Part shown: positions 29 through 23,768 of the stretch, in pieces
Position numbering within the stretch: the stretch's first letter is position 1
Layout of the letters: each line of letters begins with the position of its first letter
Assembly (NCBI GenBank): GCA_048213135.1
Contig: PS015106.1
Location: 89,192-115,737, forward strand
DNA from: Reclinomonas americana ATCC 50394
Taxonomy: Eukaryota
Length of the DNA: 26,546 nt
Direction of reading: 5' to 3'
Made by a program: the position numbers and the translations under genes
The notes under the pieces: model-generated
The model's database searches: none
Seen by the model: only the letters and a program-made list of their open reading frames with translations
What the model was told of the DNA's origin: nothing

Positions 29-3000
29 CTGCTCCCGTGCCAATCGAGCCCGTTCTTGAATGGCGGCCACTTCTTCGGCCTGCCGGCGCTCCACAGCCTC
101 CTCGCGCTCCATTAGCTCCTTGAGGGCCCGACGCTCCGCCATGATGCGCTCGCGATGCTCAGCCTCCTACAGAAGCACAACCCCACCAACGCGATGAGTT
201 GACCACAGTAGCGCACTATGAAGAACTCAATAAGTGCACCTCACGCGCACGCCGATCACGCTCCTGTCGCTGCAACATGATGGTGTCCTCGTTGGCCAAA
301 CGCGCCATGGCCTGATCCGCAGGCACGGGGATGGTGGTGCGTCCGAGCCACTGTTGAACGCACTGGCCACCGATCTCCGGCTCCAGGAGTGCCAAGTAGT
401 AACAGAAGCGCTCAACGAGCCGTCGACGTGGTCCGATTTTCGCCAGCACCTCCTCGTACACATTGCGATTGGTGAGTTCTGTGTCTTTGGGGGCGGCAAA
501 GGGGTCGTCGTCCGGCGTTTCCGGTGTCTCGGAGGGTATCTCAAAAAGCTGCACGCGCGACGGAGTGGCAGCTTCCGGTCCGCTCGGCGACTTGCTCCGC
601 TGCTCGTGCTCCAATTGTCTCTCGATCTCGTCGGCCTCCTCCTTGAGCACCGCGAGAAGCTCCTGCCCAAACGTGCCTGCCAAGAGAGTGGCAATCAGTG
701 CACCCAAACACAAGCTGCATACATACTGGGAGGGCATGCACGCACTCGGCTGTCCTTCGGCCAGCAGTGAGCGCCGCACAGTGTCCAGCACACGCTTGGT
801 CGGCTTCTCCATCCGACATTCCAGCATGTTCATCATGGCACGCACAAGCAGCATGGCGTCGTGAAACACGCCCACGCGGTACCCTGCGTGGCGCATCATG
901 ATCATCACTTATTAGCATCGCCTGATCGCAGAAAAAGAAGCACTGTGCTGTCACGCAACCGCACAGCAGCACGCGCTGCAGCATCTTGGAGGCCTTGGAA
1001 GCGGTGGCCGCCGACAGCAGGCGGCGGTCAACGTCGGCAATGATGCGCAGGTACGCAAACACCGGGCTCTGCAGCGATGGCTCACGCAGTGCCGAGTGTG
1101 CATACATGGACACAATGCGCTCTGCAAACGAGTGCAGAATAGATGAATTGATGTGGAAGAGCAAAAAAAGGAAACCACCAAGCCGCCACACCATTGAGTG
1201 TTGCCTGCGTCAGACCGAACGTGTACAAGTCGAATGTCTCCACATCTTGCAGCGTGAGATGCTCGCTGAGTACCCACAGCTGCGAGAGGAGGGTAGTCGA
1301 TTGCCGCATGTCACGCAATACTTCCTCTGTGTACGCAGGTCACAACACGGTGACGACGACGCAAGCGGGCACGTACACACAGCAGCAACAGCGCGCTCGC
1401 ACCTTGTTCAGTGAGCAAGATGAAGCACTTGAGCAGAGCACGAGCAGCGTCGGTCTTCCAGTCCACAAGGTGCAGAATGGTGACCACGGCGTGATGAATC
1501 GAGTCGGTCGAAAGCACTGCGAAGCAAGGTCACAATCTCCACATCACGCACACGCATACATAAACGCATGGCACACCTGAAAGGTCTCCAGCACCAGTCA
1601 GCCGCTGCAAAATGTCGGCCAGCATGATAAACAGCGGCTGATCAACCGAGAACAGCTCGACTTCGCGCAGCGGCACAATTACAGTCTCGAATGGGAGGGA
1701 GCCACTGGAGGAGCCAATCTTCGCTGCCGCATGAACTGATACAGAGTGGTGAGCGTGGGGAGGCGCTACAATGAGCTTGATGCGAGTGCGTTCCGCACCT
1801 GCCAGACATGGATTCTCGGCAGCCTTCATGGCCAGCCAACGGCTAGCATCGCTGGCACACAGTTTGAAGAAGGAGCGACGGAATGTCGACCCCAGTAGCG
1901 TGTCGATACCAAACTCTGTATAGAAGCAGGTTAGTGCACGTGCTGCTGCGACATCGCTCGACATGCACAGGCGACGAAACTGGTCGAAGTCAAATCCCAC
2001 AGACATCGCACGGCGAGACGAACAGCAAGCAAGCTCTCCGAGGCCAACAGCTTCTTCACCAGCTGCAGGTAGCCGGCCTCCGTCAACGGCGCCAACGTAT
2101 GCACTGCGTGGCATGACTGTGAGTCACACTGACAGAGAGAAGTACAACCGAAGCAGCTGACGCGGGCGCACCAGAGTTCTGCAACAGGGTTACGAGTTCC
2201 ACCGACATGAGCACGGCTTGCGGGATGGTGGTCCACGACGGTCGCGTGAGCCAGTCACGTGGACACGGCTCCGGTAGTGGATCGTGCGACCGGAACCCCA
2301 TCGAGGTGGCCTGACCGTCCACCGGTGCTGCAATGACAACAGGGAGTGAATAATCTTGATCCATCTCCGCAGTCAGCCTGGACGGGAAGAGAAGATGACG
2401 AACCGACAGGCAAGTGAGCCGTGTGCACAAATGGAGCCTCCATGACTCCGTCGGCCTGGCCCACAAAGTTCGAGTGATCCTGCGGCGAGAACATGTCCGC
2501 ATCGGCCACGGCCACAAACCAGAAATCCATGCATCCCATCAGTCCCTTCACACTCGTGTCCTCCTCGGGCATCAGACCTGCCGAGCAATTAGAGCTCCAT
2601 TCGCAGAAGAAGAAGAAAGAAAGGACATGCATCACTCACCATAGAGTACACACAGGCGCAGGCAGCGTATGGCAAGGGTCATCGAAGGATGCGACAGACC
2701 GGCATCAAAGTGCGACACAAACGACAGCAGCGAGCGGCTGACACGCGCCAGCAGCCAGCACTCGCGCGATGCTGCGGGATTCTCCTCGTGCAATCCCGCA
2801 TGCACACAGTCGAGCAAGGCGTGGCACATGGTACTCTGCTCACGCAGCGCACCACATACGTACTTGGCGACCACCACCAGATCCTCGGTCACCAGTCCAA
2901 ACTTTTCTGGATCCAAGAAGAGCATCCGACAGATCTCCACCATGACACGCTGCACTTCGGTCACCGGTGACGACACCAGCTTCATCGCGCTCATCCAGTC

Positions 3001-6000
3001 CCTGTACAGATACATTGCTGTGCGCAGATGCACGTCTGCAGCACCGAACACGGTGAGCGGGCAACGAATGGCGAATGAGAGGGTCACAGAATCGCTCACC
3101 CTCGAGACGCCGCTTGTACTCGTACTCGGCGCGCAGCAGGTCGGCCGGTCGAATGTCGTCGCGAGTGAGCAAGTTCACCGACAGTCGCATCTCGTCGCGG
3201 CGCAGTCGCGGATCGAAATCCAGTGCACCTACACAGATAATGAGAGGCTTGCATCCGGCAGTGCAGCACGATCAAGAACAAACCCCACGCGCGGTACTCG
3301 CGCAGCAACCACACGGCAGCCGCGTGAATGTCGCCAACATTGCTTCGTGCAGTGGTGAGGATGCGTCGCGGCATCTCGCGATCACGCAACACGCGAGCTC
3401 GTGTGCTGCCGTATGAGCCGAGAATGCGGATGCCGTGCATGGCAGAGATGAGCATGGCACCGCTCGTGTAGCTGACAACGGTGGCGAGCTCCGAGTACAC
3501 GCCCTCGGTGAGTGCCAGGTGCGCCAGATCTGAGAACGGAAGCGGACGCGAGTGAATTCAACAGTGCACATCGGAGACACACGACGGCAGCTGGCAACAA
3601 CACCTTCGTCGGCCTCCAGGGCGGAGACCACGGCGTAAATGGCGCGTTCCTGCACCGGCCGCGTGCCACTGCTCATCAGATAGAACAGCAGCTGGAAGGC
3701 GCGCTCCTCAAAGAACCATGACAGCTCGCCTGGCGTGCACGACGGGTGAGACAATCGTGTTTGCTGCAATGCAACAAAAAAACACACAAAGGAACCTCGA
3801 TGCATGAGTCCGTGCAAATGCAGAATGACTTGCTTTTGCTTCAGTGGATCTGGCGAGTGCGCACTGCACCACACATCGAGAAAGCTGATGAGTTTGTCAT
3901 CGATTGGCACACTGTCGAGCGCCAGCAAGTCCTCGTCCGCATTCCAGATGCCGCCTGATGCATCAACACATGAGCATCACACGCAACCCTATCAATCAGT
4001 GTGGACGTACGACACACCGCTGGTGATTCCCTGCGAGCCGTCTCCGCCTGGTGTGGCTGTAGTCGGTACAGCGAGGAGTGGATTCGCAGCGCGATCATCA
4101 ACATCGTGGAAGCCGCGCACTTGTTGCACGGCGTAGTAAATCACGTTGTCTTCGGTGACGTATGCCTGCCGATAGGCGGCCACCACCTGCACACTGGCGT
4201 TTCGCACACGCTGAGCGGGGCAGTGTGCCAGGATACTCATGGTGATCAGGCCTCTCTCCTCCGCCAAGGTGTCGGGCACGCCGGCTGCGCGGGACGAGGA
4301 TAAGCAACAGGCGTGGTGAATGCGAAGCCAACGTGGGAGCAACATAGTGCGCACGTTCTTCGGCCAGACATGCAAGCGAGGAGGCTGCACAGGTTACCAC
4401 GCGCTCTTGCGCCCGCGTTTCGGGATTGTCATCTGCGGTGTGCGTGTGTGGACGTTCTCAGCAAGTGCATCACCAACACTGCGTGTTGCATTGCATGTGC
4501 ACGCACCTGCAATCTCGGAGCGCTCCTCGTGTTGTCGCCCAGACTGCGATCCACGAGCCGTACTGGCCTTTGCATGTGACACGCCTGACGATGACGACGA
4601 CGACGAGCCCAACTCGCGTTCGGCCTCCTCCTCAGCAAGCCTCCGCTCCTCTTCCTCCTGCATTTCCAGTTCGTCCTCACGGCCCTTGCGCCTCCGCTGT
4701 CGCAACAATTCCTCCGCATCCGCCTCCGCCTTGGCCGCCGCAGTCGCCGCGGCGATCTCCTGCATGGATGTGGAGCAGTTCGCGGTCAGCTTTTTGCGGC
4801 GAGATTGGCCAGCGTTGCACATACGCAGACGACACACACCTTGTCCTTTGGCCGTTCAATGAGTCCCTCTGCCTCGGCAATCACATTATTGGCGTAGTTG
4901 CGCAGCAGGCGAATGTTGGCCGGCACAAAGCCGAGACTGATGAGTCCTGGTCTCAGCGACTCGGTTTCCGCCATGAATGCAAAACACTGCGCCAGCTCCA
5001 CTTGGAGATGTGGATCGTCGATGTTGGCCCAGTCGAACAAGATGTGCATGGCCGGCGATTCGATGATTGTTCCTCGTGTTTCCTCTGCAGTGGCGCATGT
5101 CAGCAAGCACTACGAAGCACTCGTACATGCCTCTCCACCCCCCACGCACCATTGACATACAATCGCGAAAACACCCATGCCAGGTGGCTGGAGATTTCCG
5201 GGCCGGCCTTCTCACTCAAATGCAAGAGTGAAGTGAGCATGGTGCGGTTGCCGATTAGAGGGCACCCAAAGTCGGTGGCACACGCCGCACGCAGGAAGCG
5301 AATGCCTTGCGGCACAAAGCGCTCCGTGTCCTGGTGTGTCTCCACGATTTCAAGAACTCGTTGCACCACCGCCTTGACCACCAATTTCTCGGCGCATTGA
5401 GCTGGGGAAAAAAAGAGAGTGAGCGAGTTGAAGAAACGGTGACACAACACAAGAATCACGAAACGTAGCTCCGCCATGTTGGACATGGCCAAAATGGCAA
5501 ATTCCCACGCCGGCTGATTGTCAGAGGCCAGCACTTGGGTCAGAATGTGCTCAATGTCGTGTGCCAAGAAATCGTAACGAGAATCCACTACAATGAGGGA
5601 GTGAGAGAGCGGTATGCCAACAAAGAGTTGCAGTCAGGCTGCACGCAACAGTTTTCAGTGATGAACGCAATGGCTGCCGTGGCGTGTCGCTGCAGTGCTC
5701 GAATTCCACTGGCCGCAGCTCTGGTGATGGGACCGACGACACCTGCCACATTCAAAGGCTCGATGCAGCGCGCTGTCACCAACAACAAAGCGTGAGCGCA
5801 CTGATTACAAAGTGCACAATTGCTCCCACTGACACGCAACTCTCCACGGCCAGATTGGAAATGGTGCGCGCGGCCTGCACTTGAATGGAGGAGTGTGAAC
5901 TCTGTTCCACCAGCTGCACGAGACGGCGGCAGAGATTGGTGGCCAGGATTTCGGAGCGGCCGACATCGGTAGCGGCCGCATTCGCAATCACCGACAGCGC

Positions 6001-9000
6001 CATTCGCTTGAGCTCCTCACTGTCGTGCTCCAGCAACAGGCGACTCATCTCCGCCGTGACGCCCATGCCCAACAGTCGCGCCATATTATGCGCATCCACT
6101 GTCAGATTGTAGAGCGTTCCGACCACCTGCACGAAGAAGGAGGAGGGGATGAGCCACACAGCATGCCTGCACAAAGCTGCATTTCCGCCACTCACGTTTC
6201 GCATCAGCGATTCGTTCTCCGAGGGGATGTGGGCGAGAATCCACGGCACGCACTTTTCCTGCACAATGGACTCGCGCAGGTGCTCCTCGGTGGAGAAGTT
6301 GCGCAGTGCCGCAGTGAGAAGCACTTGCAGGTCGAGATCCGAGTGAAATGTCTCGCCCAGCAGCACCAGATTGCGGAATCCGTCCGGAGCGGGCATCGCC
6401 GCACGGCAAGCGGCTGCGGATTCAAGAGCACGAGTCAAGCCGGAGGGGTATGCGACACAAAGAGGAATGTACATGACACTACCATGTGCAGAGAGAACGT
6501 AGAGCACACGAGCGGCCTCCACTCTGGCTGACTTGGCGGTGGAGCGCAAGCTGTTGACGACCATACTCACGCCTCCCCACTCGGCCGCCTCGGCCTTCAC
6601 TTCGTCTGTGCAAATTTACGAGTGAGCAAGCAGCGACAGGCGCACACGGTGGGGCAACGACGAACCAATTTCCAGCGCCAAATTACCGAGCAGAGCACAT
6701 GCGTTTTCTTGAATTACCGGATCACGCACATCGCCCTTCATGACACTGAGCAAGACACCACCAGCGGCACGAACGTAGCTGCACCAGATTCCTGCATTCC
6801 ATGCTCATGAGAAGAAGGGGTGGTAAGAGGGACTGCATGAAAATGAATGTGTCGCGTACCGTCCTTGGTTAAGCGAGCCAGGGTGATGAGCAAATTCTGA
6901 GTGACCAACAAATCCTCCAGCGACGCTGTGACCATCAACTTCTCCAAGCACTCGGGTTGGGCAAGTTGTGTGCGCACAGAATCTGCACGTGTATATATAA
7001 GGACACCAAACTGCACTGCACGTTCACGAACACAAGCTATCGTTCCGAGAAACGCAACCAACTTGCGAAATGCCGGCCAAGCAGCGCAAGGCATTTCCCA
7101 GTGAGCGCACGAGACCCGGATGCCGAGGGTGTAGTTCTTCTTCTCGCAGAATATCGCCTGTTTCCAAGCACGGGTGCTGGAACACCTCGAGAACGACCTC
7201 CACCAAGCCCACTTCGAGCAAACGCGGCCACATGCGTGCTGCGTGGAACCACAGACACGATCAGTAATGCGACAGCAGTGCACGCTCGCTCTAATGCGCA
7301 CGCACGATTCGCTGTCAGTGTGGCAAACGCGGCAAGACCCTCTGCTTTGAGTTCCGCATGTTCCTCACGATGAAGGACACGCACCATGCGCGGCAACACA
7401 TCCGACACGACTGCCGCCGGCACAAGAGTGTCTGCGTAGACACACTGCGTGTGAGCGCAGCGCAGCACGGCACGTGCGCTGCTCACGTGCAAGACGCGCT
7501 CACCATCGGCCACCACCTCCTCGTAGCAGAGGTACGCCTCGAGACGTACTTCGGGATCCTCGGAAAGCACGGTCCGCTCCAACATGCGCAGTCCCTGAAG
7601 CACGTGCACAAATGCACGTCTCTCACGCTCTGCGCGCTTGCCACACGTGAGATCAGTGCCTTTCGAGGTATCGCATTCTCCCAATAATCACGTGCCTGTC
7701 TTGAGCAGGAAACGCACAGCCTGCAGTGCCGTCACACGCATGGTTGGTGGTGCGCGTCGTGCAAGCTCCACAAGCACGTAGCTGACAAATTCCTTGCCGA
7801 GAGCATAGTGCAAGTCATCTGCGGTGACAGTAGTGAGGTGCGAGTGAGCTGCATGGGTCACGCGCAGCTATCGTCACGGCAAAGCGACTGAACTCTCCAT
7901 GCACAAGTTGCGCAGTGTGCTGATTGCGTGTATCTGCACGGCCTTCTCCAGTGTTGATCCGGAGAAGCAGCGGCCGGTGATGGGTCCATACGGGTGCACT
8001 TGTGTGGCCTGTCGAGCCAGATGGACGATGCTTGACAACTCGGTGATGATTGACTTGTCCATGCGCACATGCACTGCGAAGACACACCGAGTGATTGATT
8101 ACATGTCACACGAACATGCAGCAAGATCACAGCCTACCATCCTCGGTGAGCTGCGACACGGCAAACATGGCATGGTGACGAAGTCGCCAGTTCTCGGCTT
8201 TGAGCGACTTGAGCACCAGCGGCAATAATTGATGTTCAATCACTTTTGGTGCCGTTTGCAGAGCTACACGAGAGCAGAGTGAATCACCACGGATGCGACA
8301 AAAAGGAGCATGAAGGAAGCGTGTGCCACTCACCACCACAGTAGCGTACGAGGCGAGCGAGAGTCTTCAACGCTTTGCGCAATCCGTGCGTATGTGTGGT
8401 GCGCATCGTGCGTGACACAAGGAACACCAGGTCCACTTGGTCAAAGGTGAGGCACGCATAGTGCTCTGCCAACGCACTGTGAATGCCAGCAGAATGACAA
8501 ATTAACACCACTCTCGCACCACCACTCACCATTCAATGTGAGCGCATCCAGCAAATAGGCACACGCAGTTTGCATGTCATTGTCGAGTGTCATACACAGC
8601 GCATGAATCGTATCGATGTGCACCTCGACAATGTACTGCAACACGGCTTCGCCTGCAATCTCGACCGAATGAGTAACCACCCACATTCATGAAAAGTGTG
8701 CGCGCGTACGTGCACGCAACTCGTCTTCATGATGGAAGCTAACTCCATCATGCGTTGACACATGTCGTCCACGGAGCCGAGCATGATCTTGCTGAACAAC
8801 TCATCGATGACGGCCTGCCTTCTGATGCGACGCGAGCGAGCACTCTCGTCGTCCTCACTTGCCGCACCTCCAGTGCTTCCGCGACTCACAGGCCGACTGC
8901 CTCCGGCGGGGCTTCCACCACCGCGGTTGGGGATGAGCGTGAGCTGAGGCACCGTCGGTCGCCACATTTCGTCGCCATCCTCGAACTCCACCACCGGCTG

Positions 9001-9950
9001 CTCAGCAAAGCGAGCCGACACTGACCGACTGGGACTCATTCCACCGCCACCACCACCAGCCAGTGCGGAGACGAGCGTTGAGGCACCATCGCTGCGACTG
9101 CTCGCGTCCTCCCATTGCACACGACCGGAGAGCAGTCGCCGTGCGGAACCGGCATTGGCTCCAGTCGATCGTGCCGTCACCGACGCCGTTCCTGCTTCCG
9201 CTGAAGCACCGGCTCCTGCGCCTCTTGCGGAGACCGCATCGGCAGGCACTACACCCGGCACGGCCGTGCGCTGGTACAATCGTTGGCGCTCTCGTTCAAG
9301 AACCTGCAGAAAGAAAGAAAGAGATCACTGAGCAAGCACATCGAATACCACCAAACGTGATTGTATGTGTCAAGCCCGACCTCGTCTTGCACCGCGATGC
9401 GTACGCCTCCCGACGGTCGATTCCGCCACATGCTAACACGCTGCGACTGCAACGGATGCTGCTGCTCCTCCTCCGCCTGCTGCACGGCCAGATACTCGGC
9501 CGTCGGGATCTCATCATCCTCATCATCATCCTCTGCCTCCTCCTCGCCCTCCTCGAGATGCACACCCGTACCATCATCATCCTCTTGTCCATCATCACCG
9601 TCCACCACCATCACCACTCGTCGCTGCCGCCTCGGTCGTGCAGGCTGCACCAGCAAATCACCATCATCGCCATCATCGCCATCATCTCCCGTGGGTGTCT
9701 CCATGGATAACCTCCTTCCCACATAGCGCTGCGCTGGCGACAGAGGCGACAGATCAGCTGCCGGCCACGGCTGCGCACGCTCCTCCGTCGGCACCGAGTC
9801 CACTGTCAAATCATCCTCATCGCCATTATCGTTATCATAGTCGTCGGCGATGGGAACATTGAGTGGACGCGCGCGTGCCAGTGGCGAAGCACTCACGCCG
9901 ACAATGGCTTGCGGTGAGTGAGAGCCTTGTCGATGCACCACCGTCGCCAT
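29..9950 (-). CDS. Giant armadillo (ARM)/HEAT-repeat protein, 38 introns, at least 2461 aa; 3' end lies beyond the left edge of the window
   Basis: ATG at 9950 (MATVVHRQ). One stop-free frame is recovered by joining exons 9381-9950, 8721-9303, 8530-8652, 8334-8465, 8138-8263, 7894-8073, 7696-7818, 7504-7629, 7306-7431, 7059-7238, 6860-6982, 6666-6791, 6483-6605, 6196-6413, 5841-6126, 5650-5772, 5465-5587, 5150-5401, 4840-5084, 4507-4759, 4355-4432, 4018-4284, 3796-3954, 3604-3729, 3284-3529, 3100-3228, 2640-3035, 2404-2577, 2172-2327, 1981-2103, 1799-1915, 1577-1723, 1403-1516, 1192-1326, 960-1121, 746-883, 240-676 and 29-166 (7383 nt). It contains ARM-like ~42-aa units (IQENACALLGNLA, QVQAARTISNLA, LKRMALSVIANAA, VVGTLYNLT), an acidic disordered N-terminus, and E/R-rich coiled coils at ~4600-4750 and <300. 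Confidence 0.8.
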
Positions 9951-11299: not shown

Positions 11300-12799
11300 A
11301 TGACCAAGCGACCACTCCCTCCCATTGCTATTGCCGCCGGCCTCACTGGTTGGGTGGCCGTTGGTGAGTGAGAGTGTGTGTGTGAGAGAGAGAGAGCGCG
11401 CACACGTCATCACATCGCTCACTCGCATGCATGCGCAGCCACTCCGGCACCCTACTCATTCATCGCCATGGGCTTCTTGCTCGGCCTCTTTGTCATGTTT
11501 GTCAACAGCCTCATCTCCTCCACCTCTTCCTCCTCATCATCATCGTCATCATCGACATCAACAGCAGCAACAGGTGCGCGACAGAATCCCGCGACTTATT
11601 TGAATAGAAAAAAGATGCACTGATGCGCTGCTTGTGTTGTTGCATCTCAGCATCGTCACCAACAGCACAAGCAGAGGCCAAGCAGCTGTCGACCGAAGAG
11701 CAGCGTCGTCTGCAGCAAGCGTACGAGCCGAACTTTGATGTGATTGCCGAGGCCTTCCGGCAGGTGCAGCACCGGATCACGCGTTTCTTGGCCGAGGCCA
11801 CGAGCGAGGAGCCGCGCGAGGAGATCTGGGAGTACGAGAAGGGCGAGGGCGGTGGCCGCACTCGTGTGTGGGAGGGCGGCGCCAATCTGGAGAAGGGCGG
11901 CGTCAACTTTTCCGCCATTCGTGGACAGCAGCTGCCCGGATCGGCACTGGCGTCGCGAGTTGCGTCCCTTTCTGTCTCTGTCTCGCACAGTGGTGCTGAC
12001 TGCAGTGGCTTGCAGCTCAACGTTAGCGCGACGACGCCGTTTGGCGCCACGGGCGTCAGCATTGTGATTCATCCGCGCAACCCGTGGGTGCCGACGATTC
12101 ACATGAACATTCGGTACTTTGAGACGGGTCAGAAGTGGTGGTTTGGCGGCGGCATCGACCTCACTCCGTACTGCGTCAAGTCGCGTGCCGACGTGGCCAA
12201 CTTCCACGGCGCGATGCGCGACGTCTGCAACGCCCATGGCATGGACTATGCGGCGCTGAAGAAGACCGCCGACGACTACTTTACGATTACGCATCGCCAG
12301 GAGATGCGTGGCGCAGGTGCGGCGGGGTACTACACACACATGCACCTTCTGTTGCTTTGTGTGTGGCAGTGACTCACTCTCCCCCTCCGTGTTACGTGCA
12401 GGTGGCATCTTTTACGACAATCTGAACACGGATCGCGTCGCCAACTTTGACTTTTGCGTGGCGGTGGGCGACACATTTATCCGCGCCTACCGACCCTTCC
12501 TGGAGGCGTCACGGCTGTCGCTGCAGTACACGCCGCGCCAGCGTGAATGGCAGCTGCTGCGCCGCGGACGCTACGTGGAATTCAACCTGGTGTACGATCG
12601 CGGCACCAAGTTCGGCCTGGAGAGCAACGGCCGCACGGAGAGCATTCTGATGTCGCTGCCGACCGAGGCGCGGTGGTGGTACGGCGGCCAGCTGCCGCAG
12701 AACCTCGCCGCGGGCACACCCGAGTGGAATGAGCGCCACGAGGCCGAGATGCGCGAGGTCTACTTCCAGCCGCACGACTGGGTCGCCGAGCTGAAGTAA
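11300..12799 (+). CDS. CPOX: Oxygen-dependent coproporphyrinogen III oxidase (HemF/CPOX) with a hydrophobic N-terminal extension
   Basis: Exons 11300-11363, 11439-11573, 11651-11958, 12016-12316 and 12402-12799. Family motifs: [75 protein letters not shown]. The two N-terminal exons are less certain than the catalytic part. Confidence 0.95.
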
Positions 12800-12927
12800 C
12801 CTCCATTCGCGCGCACACCCCGCACATCCACAACTTACTATAGTAGACAATGAACAGACGTAAAAGAAAAAAGAACAACAGTTGACTACAATTCTCGGCC
12901 CAAGGAAAAAAAGGTTTAAAGTTCGCA

Positions 12928-14046
12928 TCATCGGAGGAACCGCTGGCACTGCCGGATGCACTGTAGCGATACGGATAAGAAAAGAGTGGCTGATGTGGGT
13001 GGACGAAGAGTGTGGAAGCAACCTTCGTGGCCTCGATCACTAGTGGATGATGCGCGGCATCGTCGCCGAGGATTTTCTGGTGTAAACTAACCGAGCGGTC
13101 AAACAGACGCACGGCTTTGCGGAACTCTCTTCTCGCCTGCACAATGAGTCCTGTGCGAACGCGAGAGAGAGCAGGTGAGCAACAACGAAGCGGGGGGAAT
13201 GTGCAGTGGCGATGAGGCAGACCGATATTATAGACAGCCTTGGCATACTCGAGATGGGAGGTCCCGTAGTGGCGCTTGCGAATCTCCAGCACACGACCCT
13301 GCACGACGCACGACACACTGAGAATAATCGCATGGGAGACAAGGCGCGAACGGCCGTGAGACGAACTTGCAACACGAGTGCCTCCTGCAAAAGCGACAGT
13401 CAGCATCATCGCACAACTGAGAGAACAACAACGGCACGCCACCTCCAGCTCATTGGCATCGCGCTTGATGCTGGCCATGTTCTCCAGCGTGACGGCCGTC
13501 AGCGGACTGCCCTGGCCGAGGATCTTTTCACGGATGCGCACCGACATGGTGTAGTCCTTTAGTGCCTCCTCCGTGTTGCCGAGTTGGTCCATTCTGCATG
13601 CGGCGGCGCGTCAGGAACGATCAGGTCGACAAGCGAATCGAATAGCAACGCAACACGACGCCATGGTTGTGTCTCACGTCGGCCAGGATTAACCGATCGT
13701 GGCCGACCAGATCTGCTCACACGTCTGTCAGCATCTCATCGTCTCACACTGTACTGTAAGCACACGCAACGTTCTCCCAGATCCAAACATCGCTCAAACA
13801 TGCGCAGTGCCTCCTGCAGCTCGCCATTCCCGAGATACAAGTGCCCCACATCTGCAAACACAACATGTAATAAGCACCTCGTGAACGACGTGTCACGAGC
13901 GCAGCACCCAACTGAGGTACACCGACAGCAGCTTCGGGTTCTCCTTGCCATAAATCTCCTCCATGGTATCCAAACACGAGTTGTACATCTCCAACGCCGC
14001 ATCGATCGTGCCACACGAGTGATACGCGTTGCCAAGACCCAGGAAA
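12928..14046 (-). CDS. Tetratricopeptide-repeat protein (kinesin-light-chain/NPHP3-type 42-aa TPRs), 5' part lost in the gap
   Basis: Spliced peptides include LGNAYHSCGTIDAALEMYNSCLDTMEEIYGKENP, ADVRHNHGVVMDQLGNTEEALKDYTMSVRIREKILGQGSPLTAVTLENMA and AKAVYNIGLIVQARREFRKAVRLFDRSVSLHQKILG. The last exon CIRQCQRFLR ends in TGA at 12928-12930. There is an 18-nt exon at 13367-13384. Confidence 0.85.
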
Positions 14047-14086
14047 CTATGACGCACATCAACACATACACAAGGCATGCCAGCAA

Positions 14087-14728
14087 NNNNNNNNNNNNNN
14101 NNNNNNNNNNNNNNNNNNNNNNNNNNNNNNNNNNNNNNNNNNNNNNNNNNNNNNNNNNNNNNNNNNNNNNNNNNNNNNNNNNNNNNNNNNNNNNNNNNNN
14201 NNNNNNNNNNNNNNNNNNNNNNNNNNNNNNNNNNNNNNNNNNNNNNNNNNNNNNNNNNNNNNNNNNNNNNNNNNNNNNNNNNNNNNNNNNNNNNNNNNNN
14301 NNNNNNNNNNNNNNNNNNNNNNNNNNNNNNNNNNNNNNNNNNNNNNNNNNNNNNNNNNNNNNNNNNNNNNNNNNNNNNNNNNNNNNNNNNNNNNNNNNNN
14401 NNNNNNNNNNNNNNNNNNNNNNNNNNNNNNNNNNNNNNNNNNNNNNNNNNNNNNNNNNNNNNNNNNNNNNNNNNNNNNNNNNNNNNNNNNNNNNNNNNNN
14501 NNNNNNNNNNNNNNNNNNNNNNNNNNNNNNNNNNNNNNNNNNNNNNNNNNNNNNNNNNNNNNNNNNNNNNNNNNNNNNNNNNNNNNNNNNNNNNNNNNNN
14601 NNNNNNNNNNNNNNNNNNNNNNNNNNNNNNNNNNNNNNNNNNNNNNNNNNNNNNNNNNNNNNNNNNNNNNNNNNNNNNNNNNNNNNNNNNNNNNNNNNNN
14701 NNNNNNNNNNNNNNNNNNNNNNNNNNNN
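14087..14728. other. Assembly gap (642 N)
   Basis: Run of N. It hides the 5' ends of the TPR gene and of SmD2. Confidence 1.
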
Positions 14729-16237: not shown

Positions 16238-16952
16238 NNNNNNNNNNNNNNNNNNNNNNNNNNNNNNNNNNNNNNNNNNNNNNNNNNNNNNNNNNNNNNN
16301 NNNNNNNNNNNNNNNNNNNNNNNNNNNNNNNNNNNNNNNNNNNNNNNNNNNNNNNNNNNNNNNNNNNNNNNNNNNNNNNNNNNNNNNNNNNNNNNNNNNN
16401 NNNNNNNNNNNNNNNNNNNNNNNNNNNNNNNNNNNNNNNNNNNNNNNNNNNNNNNNNNNNNNNNNNNNNNNNNNNNNNNNNNNNNNNNNNNNNNNNNNNN
16501 NNNNNNNNNNNNNNNNNNNNNNNNNNNNNNNNNNNNNNNNNNNNNNNNNNNNNNNNNNNNNNNNNNNNNNNNNNNNNNNNNNNNNNNNNNNNNNNNNNNN
16601 NNNNNNNNNNNNNNNNNNNNNNNNNNNNNNNNNNNNNNNNNNNNNNNNNNNNNNNNNNNNNNNNNNNNNNNNNNNNNNNNNNNNNNNNNNNNNNNNNNNN
16701 NNNNNNNNNNNNNNNNNNNNNNNNNNNNNNNNNNNNNNNNNNNNNNNNNNNNNNNNNNNNNNNNNNNNNNNNNNNNNNNNNNNNNNNNNNNNNNNNNNNN
16801 NNNNNNNNNNNNNNNNNNNNNNNNNNNNNNNNNNNNNNNNNNNNNNNNNNNNNNNNNNNNNNNNNNNNNNNNNNNNNNNNNNNNNNNNNNNNNNNNNNNN
16901 NNNNNNNNNNNNNNNNNNNNNNNNNNNNNNNNNNNNNNNNNNNNNNNNNNNN
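16238..16952. other. Assembly gap (715 N)
   Basis: Run of N. It presumably hides the DHHC N-terminal TM exons. Confidence 1.
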
Positions 16953-21488: not shown

Positions 21489-23768
21489 ATGGCGAGCCAA
21501 GGCATCACAGAGCACTCCAACTCACTCAGCGCCAACATTGACTTGTGCAGCTCGCCACTGGTTCGCGAGACAGACGCATGCATTTTCCTCACGTTGCATC
21601 TCACACTCTCACAGGAGTTNNNNNNNNNNNNNNNNNNNNNNNNNNNNNNNNNNNNNNNNNNNNNNNNNNNNNNNNNNNNNNNNNNNNNNNNNNNNNNNNN
21701 NNNNNNNNNNNNNNNNNNNNNNNNNNNNNNNNNNNNNNNNNNNNNNNNNNNNNNNNNNNNNNNNNNNNNNNNNNNNNNNNNNNNNNNNNNNNNNNNNNNN
21801 NNNNNNNNNNNNNNNNNNNNNNNNNNNNNNNNNNNNNNNNNNNNNNNNNNNNNNNNNNNNNNNNNNNNNNNNNNNNNNNNNNNNNNNNNNNNNNNNNNNN
21901 NNNNNNNNTCTACCTTACCATTTGCGAATGGCAGGGCTGCTCGGTGCTCCTCGGCTTCAATCCGGTGGAGCTGTCGCGCAATGCGCCGATTGAGAAGTGG
22001 GATCGGTGCGTGTTTTGTGCTTGTCCTCTCTCCTCCGTCCTCGCCACTGACTTGATGGCGAGCAGCACCTTCCGTGATGTGGCGGTGGCATTCAATGCAC
22101 GCGCCGACGACCGGCATATTATGCTGACGCCGGTGGTCGGGCCCGAGGTAGGCCTGATTGATGGACATGCAGCAAAGCTGCACTCTTCTCATCACTATCA
22201 CGCTGCAGGGCATCACGGGCTCGACGAGAATGAAGGGCGGCTCCGGCACGAAACTGATTCTCGATGCAGCGTTTGGCGCTGCTCTGCAGACCGCACTGGC
22301 GGCGCCAGAAGACGGTGAGCAGTCACTCGCATCCGTGCTTCCTGATTTCTCCGACTGTGTCCCTCACTTCGCGCCGGCACTCGCAGTCGACGCGTCCATT
22401 CGCTCGTGGGTCGAGCGCATCTTGGACAGCACCGAGGCGGCGGTGGAGCGTCTCTACACCGAGTATGCCACCGATCTGGCGGCTGTCGTGCAGTTGGCAG
22501 CCAACTCGCTGGCACAGGGGGGCAGTGTGACGTACTTGGGTCAGGGCAGTTGCGTCTGCAGCAAGGAGGAATGTGCGGAGCTAACGACTCACATGCTTCT
22601 CTGCTGCAGATTTCGGTCTCCTCGGCTTTGTTGATGCCTCGGAGTGTCCGCCCACCTACGGCGCCGCATTCACCGACATTCGTGGATTCCTTCGCTATGG
22701 GTGGGATGAGATGCGCAACCAAGAGGTTCGCCTGATGTGCACCAGTCAGTTTGTGCTGCACCACCGCTCACTGACCATGGCGAACAGGGAAACCTGAGTG
22801 GCGTGGGTGCGCCGTACGAGATCTCACATGCAGACTTTTTCAGCAAGGTCGCGCCGCACCTGTCGTCGAAGGACCTGGTCGTCTTTTTGATGCAGACCAC
22901 AGAGGAGGTGGAGTACTACGCCGAGGTACGCCAGCGCATTGAGGCGGCTGTCGAGACGGCCGAACGACCTCGCATGGCGGCTCTGTGTGTGTACGACGCC
23001 GAGGTCGGTTTACGCCACGATAGTTGCTGCTTTCGTTGGTGACCGTCCCTCACGTATTCTGCAGGGACCACGAGTGCACATGGTCGATGTCGATGCGTGC
23101 ATCTCGGTGCCGGTGGCCTCCTCCGTCAAGACTGCTGCCGGTCGGTTCACTCCGGAGGCTGAGCTCTCGCTGAAACTGAGTCTGAATGCCATCACCACCG
23201 GTGCGTCTATCTTTTTGGTGGCTCAGGTTTATTGTCGATCCGTGAACTCACCCAGAGGGGTATCGTCATGGCTCACGATGTAGGTGCCCATGTGATGAAG
23301 GGCCTGGTGTTCGGCAATCGCATGATCAACGTCAAAGTCAGCAACAACAAGCTGTACCACCGCGCCATTTCCATCATTGCCACGGTATGCCGCGTTCCTC
23401 TGCTCTGGATCATCACGGAGATACTCATCCATTTCCTGTGCAGATTGCCAAGGTGTCAACCGAGGAAGCCACTCGTGCCTTGCATCGTTCGATTTACGAG
23501 GACATTGATCCGGAGCGCGACGTGTCCGTGTCGGAGCGCATCAGCGTGGCCGTGGAGAAGGAAAAGGTGAATGCAATGTGCTTATTGTGGGAGGTGAAGA
23601 GAGCGAAAGTCTGACTTTGCTGTTCTTCGTGTACAGGTCGTCCCCGTGGCGTTGCTGTTGGCGTTGCGTGGACGTGAGATCACGGCCAAGGACGCCATTC
23701 GCGCGCTGGCGGAGGAGCCTGTGGTGCGAGTGTGCATGCAAAAGTGGACCGAGTCCAAGGGTTCATGA
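21489..23768 (+). CDS. GCKR: Glucokinase regulatory protein-like / MurQ-related double-SIS-domain protein (interrupted by a gap)
   Basis: ITEHSNSLSANID; VLLGFNPVELSRNAPIEKWD; PVVGPE|GITGSTRMKGGSGTKLIL; GFVDASECPPTYGAAFTDIRGF; ELSLKLSLNAITT|GAHVMKGLVFGNRMINVKVSNNKLYHRA; EKVVPVALL; TGA at 23766-23768. The motif order matches vertebrate GKRP as I recall it; orthology is not tested. Confidence 0.85.
21620..21908. other. Assembly gap (289 N)
   Basis: Run of N inside the GCKR-like gene. Confidence 1.

Follow-up and report, generated by a model that had tools for sequence, protein, structure and literature searches.

A long armadillo-repeat gene of Reclinomonas americana with phase-1 introns at repeat boundaries, probably grown by old exon duplication

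The DNA considered here is a 26.5-kb stretch from Reclinomonas americana ATCC 50394, called the window below whenever the whole stretch is meant. It carries on the minus strand a long gene for an armadillo (ARM) repeat protein, in which phase-1 introns recur at a fixed position within the repeat unit. The locus is best read as a single gene of about 2450 codons whose repeat array grew by old tandem duplication of an exon-intron module, and a probability of about 0.75 is attached to this reading. In the gene model used throughout (model R, Table 1) the 37 exons splice into one open frame of 7353 nucleotides (nt), i.e., 2450 codons and a stop. The 36 introns are short (46–80 nt, mean 66 nt) and frequent, with about 5 per kb of coding sequence, as befits an intron-rich genome. 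An earlier first-pass annotation of the same DNA had listed a run of consecutive exons with lengths in units of 41–42 codons, and this list is reproduced exactly as exons 3–18 of model R (8652 down to 5150). Position 4840, from which the run had been taken to extend, is the end of exon 19, an exon that was absent from the list.

All splice sites were predicted from sequence, with a gene finder that works by dynamic programming, requires an open frame and scores codon usage, intron length and splice matrices. As these matrices were built on intron bases only, the finder is blind to phase and to repeats. A maximum-length version under-split the gene and a low-penalty version over-split it, and both models were discarded; once a minimum exon length was imposed, the finder settled on 36 introns in the gene, 28 of which are in phase 1. 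Model R results from a comparison of this phase-blind model with the exon list of the first-pass annotation. Twelve of the 17 introns that bound exons 3–18 were recovered identically by the phase-blind finder, and intron 1 as well as introns 19–36 come straight from it, so that model R departs from the finder output at introns 2, 7, 10, 13, and 15. A YTNAY motif helped to decide between competing splice sites. It reads CTCAC or TTCAC in most cases, is present in 29 of the 36 introns at 8–40 nt (usually 12–27 nt) ahead of the acceptor, and looks like the branch-point signal of this organism. Each of the five differing introns has such a motif, mostly CTCAC, 16–22 nt before the AG, whereas it is missing in three of the four finder alternatives to them; the repeat register and the predicted fold (see below) also favor the five introns. 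Intron 7 (7695–7630, 66 nt) appears to be a GC-AG intron, with the donor CAG/GCACGT, the acceptor GCGCAG and CTCAC 19 nt before the AG, and the sole GT-AG alternative (7713–7660) combines a weak acceptor with the lack of a branch motif. Intron 13 (6482–6414, 69 nt) is in frame and free of stops, which is why the finder read through it.

Short GT-AG introns can otherwise be read directly from the DNA, e.g., around exon 3 (8652–8530), which is flanked by TTGCAG on one side and GTGAGT on the other. The donor of exon 10 (7058 versus 7062) is the least certain splice site in the region of exons 3–18. An alternative acceptor exists for intron 3, and intron 26 has two competing versions: the one chosen by the finder (3065–3002, 64 nt, phase 2) gives exons of 163 and 362 nt, and the other (3087–3018, 70 nt, phase 1) has a weaker acceptor and gives exons of 141 and 378 nt (3 x 126), the frame remaining open with either. 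An additional intron proposed by the finder inside the 252-nt exon 18 (5265–5215) has a branch motif and was rejected, as it spans the best-folded helices of a structural model (predicted local distance difference test, pLDDT, 76–84); on the strength of that model these bases are most likely coding.

Table 1. Features of the armadillo-repeat gene in model R. Arm profile refers to the 41-position profile described in the text, with the matched profile positions and the distance in residues from profile end to exon end (offset).
Feature	Position	Strand	Length and phase	Content and evidence
Whole coding region	216..9950	minus		37 exons, 36 introns, 2450 codons + stop
Exons 1 (9950–9357) and 2 (9303–8721)	8721..9950	minus	Intron 1 phase 0, intron 2 phase 1	Acidic, Gly/Ser/Ala-rich N-terminal region of ~390 residues, probably disordered; no significant Pfam family
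Exon 3	8530..8652	minus	123 nt, phase 1-1	Repeat-sized unit; Arm profile silent; acceptor TTGCAG at 8653, CTCAT 18 nt upstream
Exon 4	8334..8465	minus	132 nt, phase 1-1	Finder and model R agree; Arm profile silent
Exon 5	8138..8263	minus	126 nt, phase 1-1	One ARM/HEAT-like unit; Pfam HEAT 16.6 bits (under cut-off); Arm profile 7–37, offset 1.3
Exon 6	7894..8073	minus	180 nt, phase 1-1	One unit, lengthened by ~18 residues ahead of helix 3; Arm profile 27–39 at exon end, offset 1.3, start offset 17.7
Exon 7	7696..7818	minus	123 nt, phase 1-1	Followed by the apparent GC-AG intron 7
Exon 8	7504..7629	minus	126 nt, phase 1-1	One ARM-like unit; Arm profile 5–32, offset 1.3
Exon 9	7306..7431	minus	126 nt, phase 1-1	ARM-like unit; Arm profile 12–38, offset 1.3; finder and model R agree
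Exon 10	7059..7238	minus	180 nt, phase 1-1	Arm profile silent
Exon 11	6860..6982	minus	123 nt, phase 1-1	Arm profile silent
Exon 12	6666..6791	minus	126 nt, phase 1-1	One ARM unit; Pfam Arm 18.2 bits, positions 17–40; Arm profile 25–40, offset 2.3
Exon 13	6483..6605	minus	123 nt, phase 1-1	One ARM unit; Arm profile 6–40, offset 1.3
Exons 14 (6413–6196) and 15 (6126–5841)	5841..6413	minus	218 nt and 286 nt, 504 nt together	Four ARM units
Intron 14	6195–6127	minus	Phase 0	Within the second unit of the 504-nt block, separating helix 2 from helix 3
Intron 15		minus		CTCAC 21 nt before AG
Exon 16	5650..5772	minus	123 nt, phase 1-1	One ARM unit; Arm profile 12–37, offset 1.3
Exon 17	5465..5587	minus	123 nt, phase 1-1	One helical unit (AlphaFold)
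Exon 18	5150..5401	minus	252 nt, phase 1-1	Two 42-residue units; Arm profile 14–37, offset 1.3
Exon 19	4840..5084	minus	245 nt, phase 1 to 0	About two more helical units; weak ARM_ARMC5 match, E 0.17
Exons 20–37	216..4759	minus		Exon 20 a charged, Ser-rich linker; after it another ~1000 residues in helical units; no Pfam family
Exon 24 and exon 30		minus		Arm profile matches, offsets 3.3 and 1.3

The units encoded by these exons are three-helix ARM repeats of 41–42 residues, as had been claimed from their length. Pfam was run on the 37 separate exon translations and on unbroken frames, and the spliced protein was scanned only with an Arm profile made for this analysis. Against a cut-off of 20.6 bits the Pfam Arm family (PF00514) scores 37.1 bits in the frame 5779–6615, which holds exons 13–15 together with two read-through introns, and 38.4 bits in exon 15 alone. 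Exon by exon, a match to a repeat family is obtained in three of the 37 exons only (exon 15, and at lower scores exon 12 with Arm and exon 5 with HEAT), and the units are therefore very diverged. The Arm profile, with 41 positions in the Pfam register, was built from 161 repeats in the 15 proteins found by HMMER (see below) and gives 13 matches in the spliced protein. In nine of them, located in exons 5, 6, 8, 9, 13, 15, 16, 18, and 30, the profile ends 1.3 residues before the end of the exon. Two further matches within exon 15 end 43.3 and 85.3 residues before it, i.e., 1.3 residues plus 42 and 84, and the remaining offsets are 2.3 (exon 12) and 3.3 (exon 24). The phase-1 introns are thus found at one nucleotide position of the unit, 1 1/3 codons past the last Pfam Arm position. 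A six-frame scan made without any splice model recovers the same Arm matches, all of them on the minus strand and inside the gene. It had been stated that every intron follows directly on a helix-3 motif NL(A/C/T)xE/D/N; what holds of this is the common register given by the Arm profile, and fewer than half of the boundaries carry the literal motif NL(A/C/T)xE. A repeat profile trained on the gene itself recruited no further exons. By eye, an Asn occupies the xNL-like position in three units of exon 15 and in units of exons 6, 12, 14, and 17, most other units being without it. In ARM proteins such as importin-alpha and beta-catenin the helix-3 Asn holds extended peptides.

Predicted structures lead to the same unit boundaries. 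Two AlphaFold models were made on unbroken frames, read-through introns included. In the model of 5779–6615 (mean pLDDT 70.5) exon 13 forms one unit of helices H1, H2, and H3 (residues 4–12, 15–24, and 28–42), a new unit begins with exon 14, and exon 15 ends two residues past an H3; confidence is high only over exon 15 (pLDDT 85–92). In the model of 5151–5585 (mean pLDDT 63.9) exon 17 is filled by one unit with helices 3–20 and 24–38, and exon 18 contains two 42-residue units, the first with helices 61–83 and 87–102 and the second with helices 107–111, 114–126, and 129–144. Helix triplets with a period of 41–42 residues are seen in exons 13, 14, 15, and 18, and of the introns that were read through, intron 13 has a pLDDT of about 60, whereas introns 14 and 17 stay below 50. 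A Foldseek comparison of the 5779–6615 model with the PDB returns designed ARM proteins, beta-catenin, Vac8, and importin-alpha with a probability of 1.00 and a query template modeling (TM) score of 0.36–0.63, a value lowered by the two read-through introns. A sequence search of the PDB gives SmgGDS (6e-7), Vac8 (1e-5), and importin-alpha. The protein is an ARM solenoid, with designed ARM proteins, Vac8, importin-alpha, and SmgGDS as its closest matches. A profile scan and structure prediction had been suggested as a check on the repeat boundaries; the Arm profile mostly ends 1.3 residues before an exon end, and the AlphaFold units end at exon ends.

Exon length and intron phase follow the repeat. 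In the region of exons 3–18 lengths are whole multiples of the unit: 11 of the 16 exons measure 123–132 nt, one measures 252 nt, one pair adds up to 504 nt and two exons of 180 nt carry an insertion. The sole exception to whole-multiple exon lengths is the 504-nt block, which is split by a phase-0 intron. Across the gene 31 of the 36 introns are in phase 1, four in phase 0 and one in phase 2, and 26 of the 35 internal exons are symmetric (phase 1-1). The dominance of phase 1 had been noted before, with 33 of 38 introns in phase 1 and none in phase 2; the dominance stands and the exact counts do not, although the alternative version of intron 26 would change them to 32, four, and none. As a control the same finder was applied to eight neighboring genes, for which rough models were obtained. 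Their 65 introns are distributed as 28 in phase 0, 24 in phase 1, and 13 in phase 2, and AMMECR1, previously credited with introns of phases 0 and 2 only, has five phase-0 introns in this run. The finder therefore has no intrinsic bias toward phase 1. Relative to the neighbors the phase-1 excess is significant by Fisher's test for model R (p = 1.2e-6) and for the phase-blind model with its 28 of 36 (p = 7e-5), and the enrichment of 123–132 nt exons, 11 of 16 in exons 3–18 versus 5 of 73 in the neighbor models, is likewise significant (p = 3.8e-7).

It could be argued that part of this regularity was imposed by the choice of splice sites, or that two genes were joined, one of them an ARM gene that stops around 4400 and the other lying downstream, in which case the counts for the whole gene would be overstated. 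Five introns of the region, one with a GC donor, were indeed chosen by hand among predicted sites, alternatives exist for intron 26 and for the acceptor of intron 3, and without splicing of intron 20 the exon 20 frame continues to a stop near 4397. On the other hand, 12 of the 17 introns of the region and all 18 of introns 19–36 were delivered by a finder blind to phase and repeats, and 15 of these 18 are in phase 1. An open spliced frame of 7.35 kb is not expected by chance, Arm matches in the same register recur downstream in exons 24 and 30, and a division into two genes would leave the region of exons 3–18 unaffected. An artificial origin of the pattern is for these reasons regarded as highly improbable.

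The array must be old, in line with the first description of its repeats as highly diverged. Within the 9.8-kb gene no DNA self-match was found except 32 nt of low-complexity acidic coding sequence, and no similarity among the 36 introns was found past the splice and branch signals. The single self-match (9654–9685 versus 9807–9838, 84% identical) lies in the Asp/Gly/Glu-rich N-terminal exon. The peptides encoded by different exons are barely alike, with a best z-score of 5.7 and most scores below 2. An origin from introners or from recent duplication was considered and rejected, since the introns share splice signals only and the gene has no DNA self-similarity. The order of exon lengths from 8652 to 7059, i.e., 123, 132, 126, 180 and then 123, 126, 126, 180 nt, resembles a doubled block of four; such a super-repeat was likewise rejected, as exons four positions apart are no more alike than others (mean peptide z-score 0.38).

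A regular intron pattern could also have arisen in parallel, if an ARM array free of introns acquired them independently at the equivalent spot of each unit, by way of a proto-splice site and possibly with introner-like elements. The richness of this genome in introns is compatible with such a process and a weak common context does exist, as G is the last base in 22 of the 36 exons that precede an intron and is also the usual first base of the split codons. The introns, however, have nothing but splice and branch signals in common and are hence not copies of one element, the peptide context flanking them is not conserved and yet at least 11 units placed by the profile have the intron at precisely the same nucleotide, and neighboring genes treated with the same finder have no excess of phase 1. 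Parallel gain is accordingly held to be unlikely. Intron position and phase are identical even though the sequence context of the units is no longer conserved, and for this reason inheritance explains the array best: growth through a duplicated exon-intron module is the most economical explanation, and the earlier proposal that the gene grew by exon duplication is well supported as an inference.

The symmetry of the repeat exons had further suggested that they act as cassettes, skipped or recombined in frame by splicing or shuffling and so giving rise to varied binding surfaces, as in candidate immune receptors. The arithmetic behind this is right, as any one of the 26 internal exons with a length divisible by three can be deleted with the frame staying open and no stop being created. 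Twelve introns also have a length divisible by three, and seven of these (7503–7432, 6482–6414, 6195–6127, 5464–5402, 3795–3730, 1769–1719, and 745–677) are without in-frame stops, so that their retention would keep the frame. The top HMMER match of the repeat region combines NB-ARC with ARM, which means that ARM sensors on STAND NTPases exist, and reports on Ectocarpus (PMC3341825) and on brown-algal ROCO genes (PMC11378527) describe LRR or TPR families with one repeat per exon for which diversification was proposed. The gene itself points the other way. Neither exons nor introns have DNA similarity and peptide similarity is close to noise, so that traces of recent duplication or shuffling are lacking. 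A Pfam scan of the 37 exon translations at E up to 1, which domains split over small exons could escape, detected no NB-ARC, ROC-COR, kinase or other signaling domain, and no other ARM gene was found in a six-frame Arm-profile scan of the 26.5-kb window. Across eukaryotes, according to one survey, short introns go with intron definition and retention, and long flanking introns with exon definition and skipping (PMC6142364); the introns here are 46–80 nt. A cassette function is thus unsupported and disfavored, and it is deemed very unlikely. It is conceivable, at a still slighter chance, that the gene varies the length and surface of its product through splicing, with regulated exon skipping or in-frame intron retention producing a graded series of solenoids. 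If that were true it would be the ARM counterpart of the brown-algal receptor genes with repeat exons, acting from one locus and through different superhelical registers.

Comparison with known repeat-exon systems leads to a similar assessment. NLRP-type LRR regions have uniform exons of 171 nt, some of them alternatively spliced, and are another case of symmetric exons each encoding a fixed piece of solenoid. NLRP genes are, however, vertebrate genes with long introns and a NACHT signaling domain, and their exon borders fall inside the LRR unit and not between units as in the ARM gene. An extreme bias to one intron phase is shared with an LRR-exon system, where it was attributed to clonal expansion of one exon; that system comprises tens of thousands of exons of exact length and phase 2 with nucleotide conservation in the younger groups, whereas here there is one gene, in phase 1 and fully diverged. 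The nucleotide or strong peptide similarity between repeat exons that is the hallmark of shuffled families, such as those of NB-ARC-TPR and ROCO in Ectocarpus or the 90-bp LRR of Tetrahymena, is absent from the ARM gene. In Ectocarpus, TPR exons of 126 nt (42 residues) and LRR exons of 72 nt each encode one repeat in a symmetric exon, and the NB-ARC-TPR and LRR-ROCO genes are described as multi-gene families with signaling domains, identical exon lengths and ongoing shuffling (PMC3341825). The ARM gene differs from these receptors in its mixture of 123, 126, and 132 nt exons, in the lack of DNA similarity and of a signaling domain, and in being the single gene seen. The architecture falls into the second class defined by Street, Rose and Barrick (2006), which, as summarized in later papers, contains repeat genes with exons that are multiples of the unit, an arrangement attributed to local duplication of intron/exon modules (PMC4585158, PMC3995336). 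The likeness to this class, so far as those summaries go, lies in exons of one, two or four units and in introns that share one place and one phase; the difference from the class as summarized is that the pattern runs through a whole gene of 36 introns in an under-sampled, protist-like genome. No description of a gene with one ARM repeat per exon was found in the literature searched.

With respect to relatives, a HMMER search of 1.84 billion representative proteins gave 15 hits, the best with E 1.1e-9, and all carry generic ARM repeats joined to unrelated domains. Word-based searches revealed no relative, neither with the repeat region among proteins of 490–2000 residues nor with the C-terminal frame among proteins of 402–2000 residues, and a metagenome scan with exon 15 found none either. 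The protein resembles ARM proteins of PF00514 (importin-alpha, Vac8, SmgGDS/RAP1GDS1, beta-catenin, and designed ones) in its tandem three-helix units of 41–42 residues, its fold and its sequence matches, and differs from them in being far longer, about 2450 residues, and in that most of its units are too diverged for Pfam. As no relative better than E 1e-9 exists among the proteins searched, it is not an orthologue of these named ARM proteins.

The neighboring genes recognized by Pfam on open frames are AMMECR1, a coproporphyrinogen oxidase gene, a TPR_10/TPR_12 gene, a BACK-domain gene, a gene with a GKRP-like domain and an arylsulfatase gene. The coproporphyrinogen oxidase gene (11468–12799, plus strand) has best matches that are 50–54% identical, bacterial metagenome proteins among them, and the best named eukaryote is Thecamonas trahens with 50%. 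Since even these matches reach only 50–54%, the source is an under-sampled eukaryote, which in turn explains why the ARM protein lacks a close relative. The predicted exons of the TPR_10/TPR_12 gene (12509–14078, minus strand) do not correspond to single repeats, its introns occur in mixed phases, and a run of N (14087–14728) masks its 5' part. Two more such runs (16238–16952 and 21620–21908) bring the total to 1646 bases, all outside the ARM gene, and they appear as low-GC dips in the composition profile of the window, which otherwise has a GC content of about 56–60%.

Several points weigh against the reading of the locus as one old array of duplicated modules. Every splice site is a prediction, and for five of the 17 introns of the region the profile register and the fold served as guides along with the branch motif, so that these five were not chosen in full independence of the repeat pattern; one of them needs a GC donor. 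Nine of the 13 matches of the Arm profile score below 2 bits, and the argument therefore rests on their common register and not on their score. Within the region such matches occur in nine of the 16 exons only; exon 17 is backed by the predicted fold alone, and exons 3, 4, 7, 10, and 11 were called units from size and phase only. The AlphaFold models come from alignments of five rows and have a mean pLDDT of 70.5 and 63.9. A function as docking scaffold is suggested at the level of the family, and the searches described above found no orthologue or paralogue that could order the duplications or date the introns.

Given these points, the duplication reading may be put together as follows. In model R the protein consists of a probably disordered acidic N-terminus, about 23 ARM units, a charged linker and about 1000 residues of ARM-like helical units. 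Eleven exons of 123–132 nt encode one unit each, the 252-nt exon two units and the pair of 218 and 286 nt four, and the exons of 180 nt one unit with about 18 extra residues, as seen for exon 6 and presumed for exon 10. Intron positions would then be homologous between units: a phase 1-1 exon was probably duplicated in tandem together with its intron, repeatedly and long ago, after which long divergence would have left no DNA similarity and little peptide similarity. Loss of a few introns may have fused units to form larger blocks and the 252-nt exon, and inside blocks some phase-0 introns, few in number, may have been gained. As the phase-1 pattern continues downstream, with in-register matches in exons 24 and 30, the same module may have given rise to most of the 2450 residues. 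The mature protein is likely to be a long superhelical docking scaffold in which the units of exons 12–17 would mostly retain the helix-3 Asn. Splicing is most likely constitutive, with each intron of 46–80 nt presumably recognized across itself.

What had been observed at this locus by the first-pass annotation is confirmed, and its interpretation is partly supported. The architecture belongs to a known class of repeat-protein genes, of which the ARM gene is a clean further case from an under-sampled eukaryote. No new mechanism is opened by it, and the idea of diversification, the only surprising part, is so far without support. The gene is an unusually clean example of how a solenoid protein can be built from a single exon; its introns have been kept at nearly every unit boundary though the units have diverged almost beyond recognition. 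It can usefully serve in teaching and as a test of exon duplication versus intron gain, and it illustrates that intron position can mark repeat units that are missed by sequence profiles.

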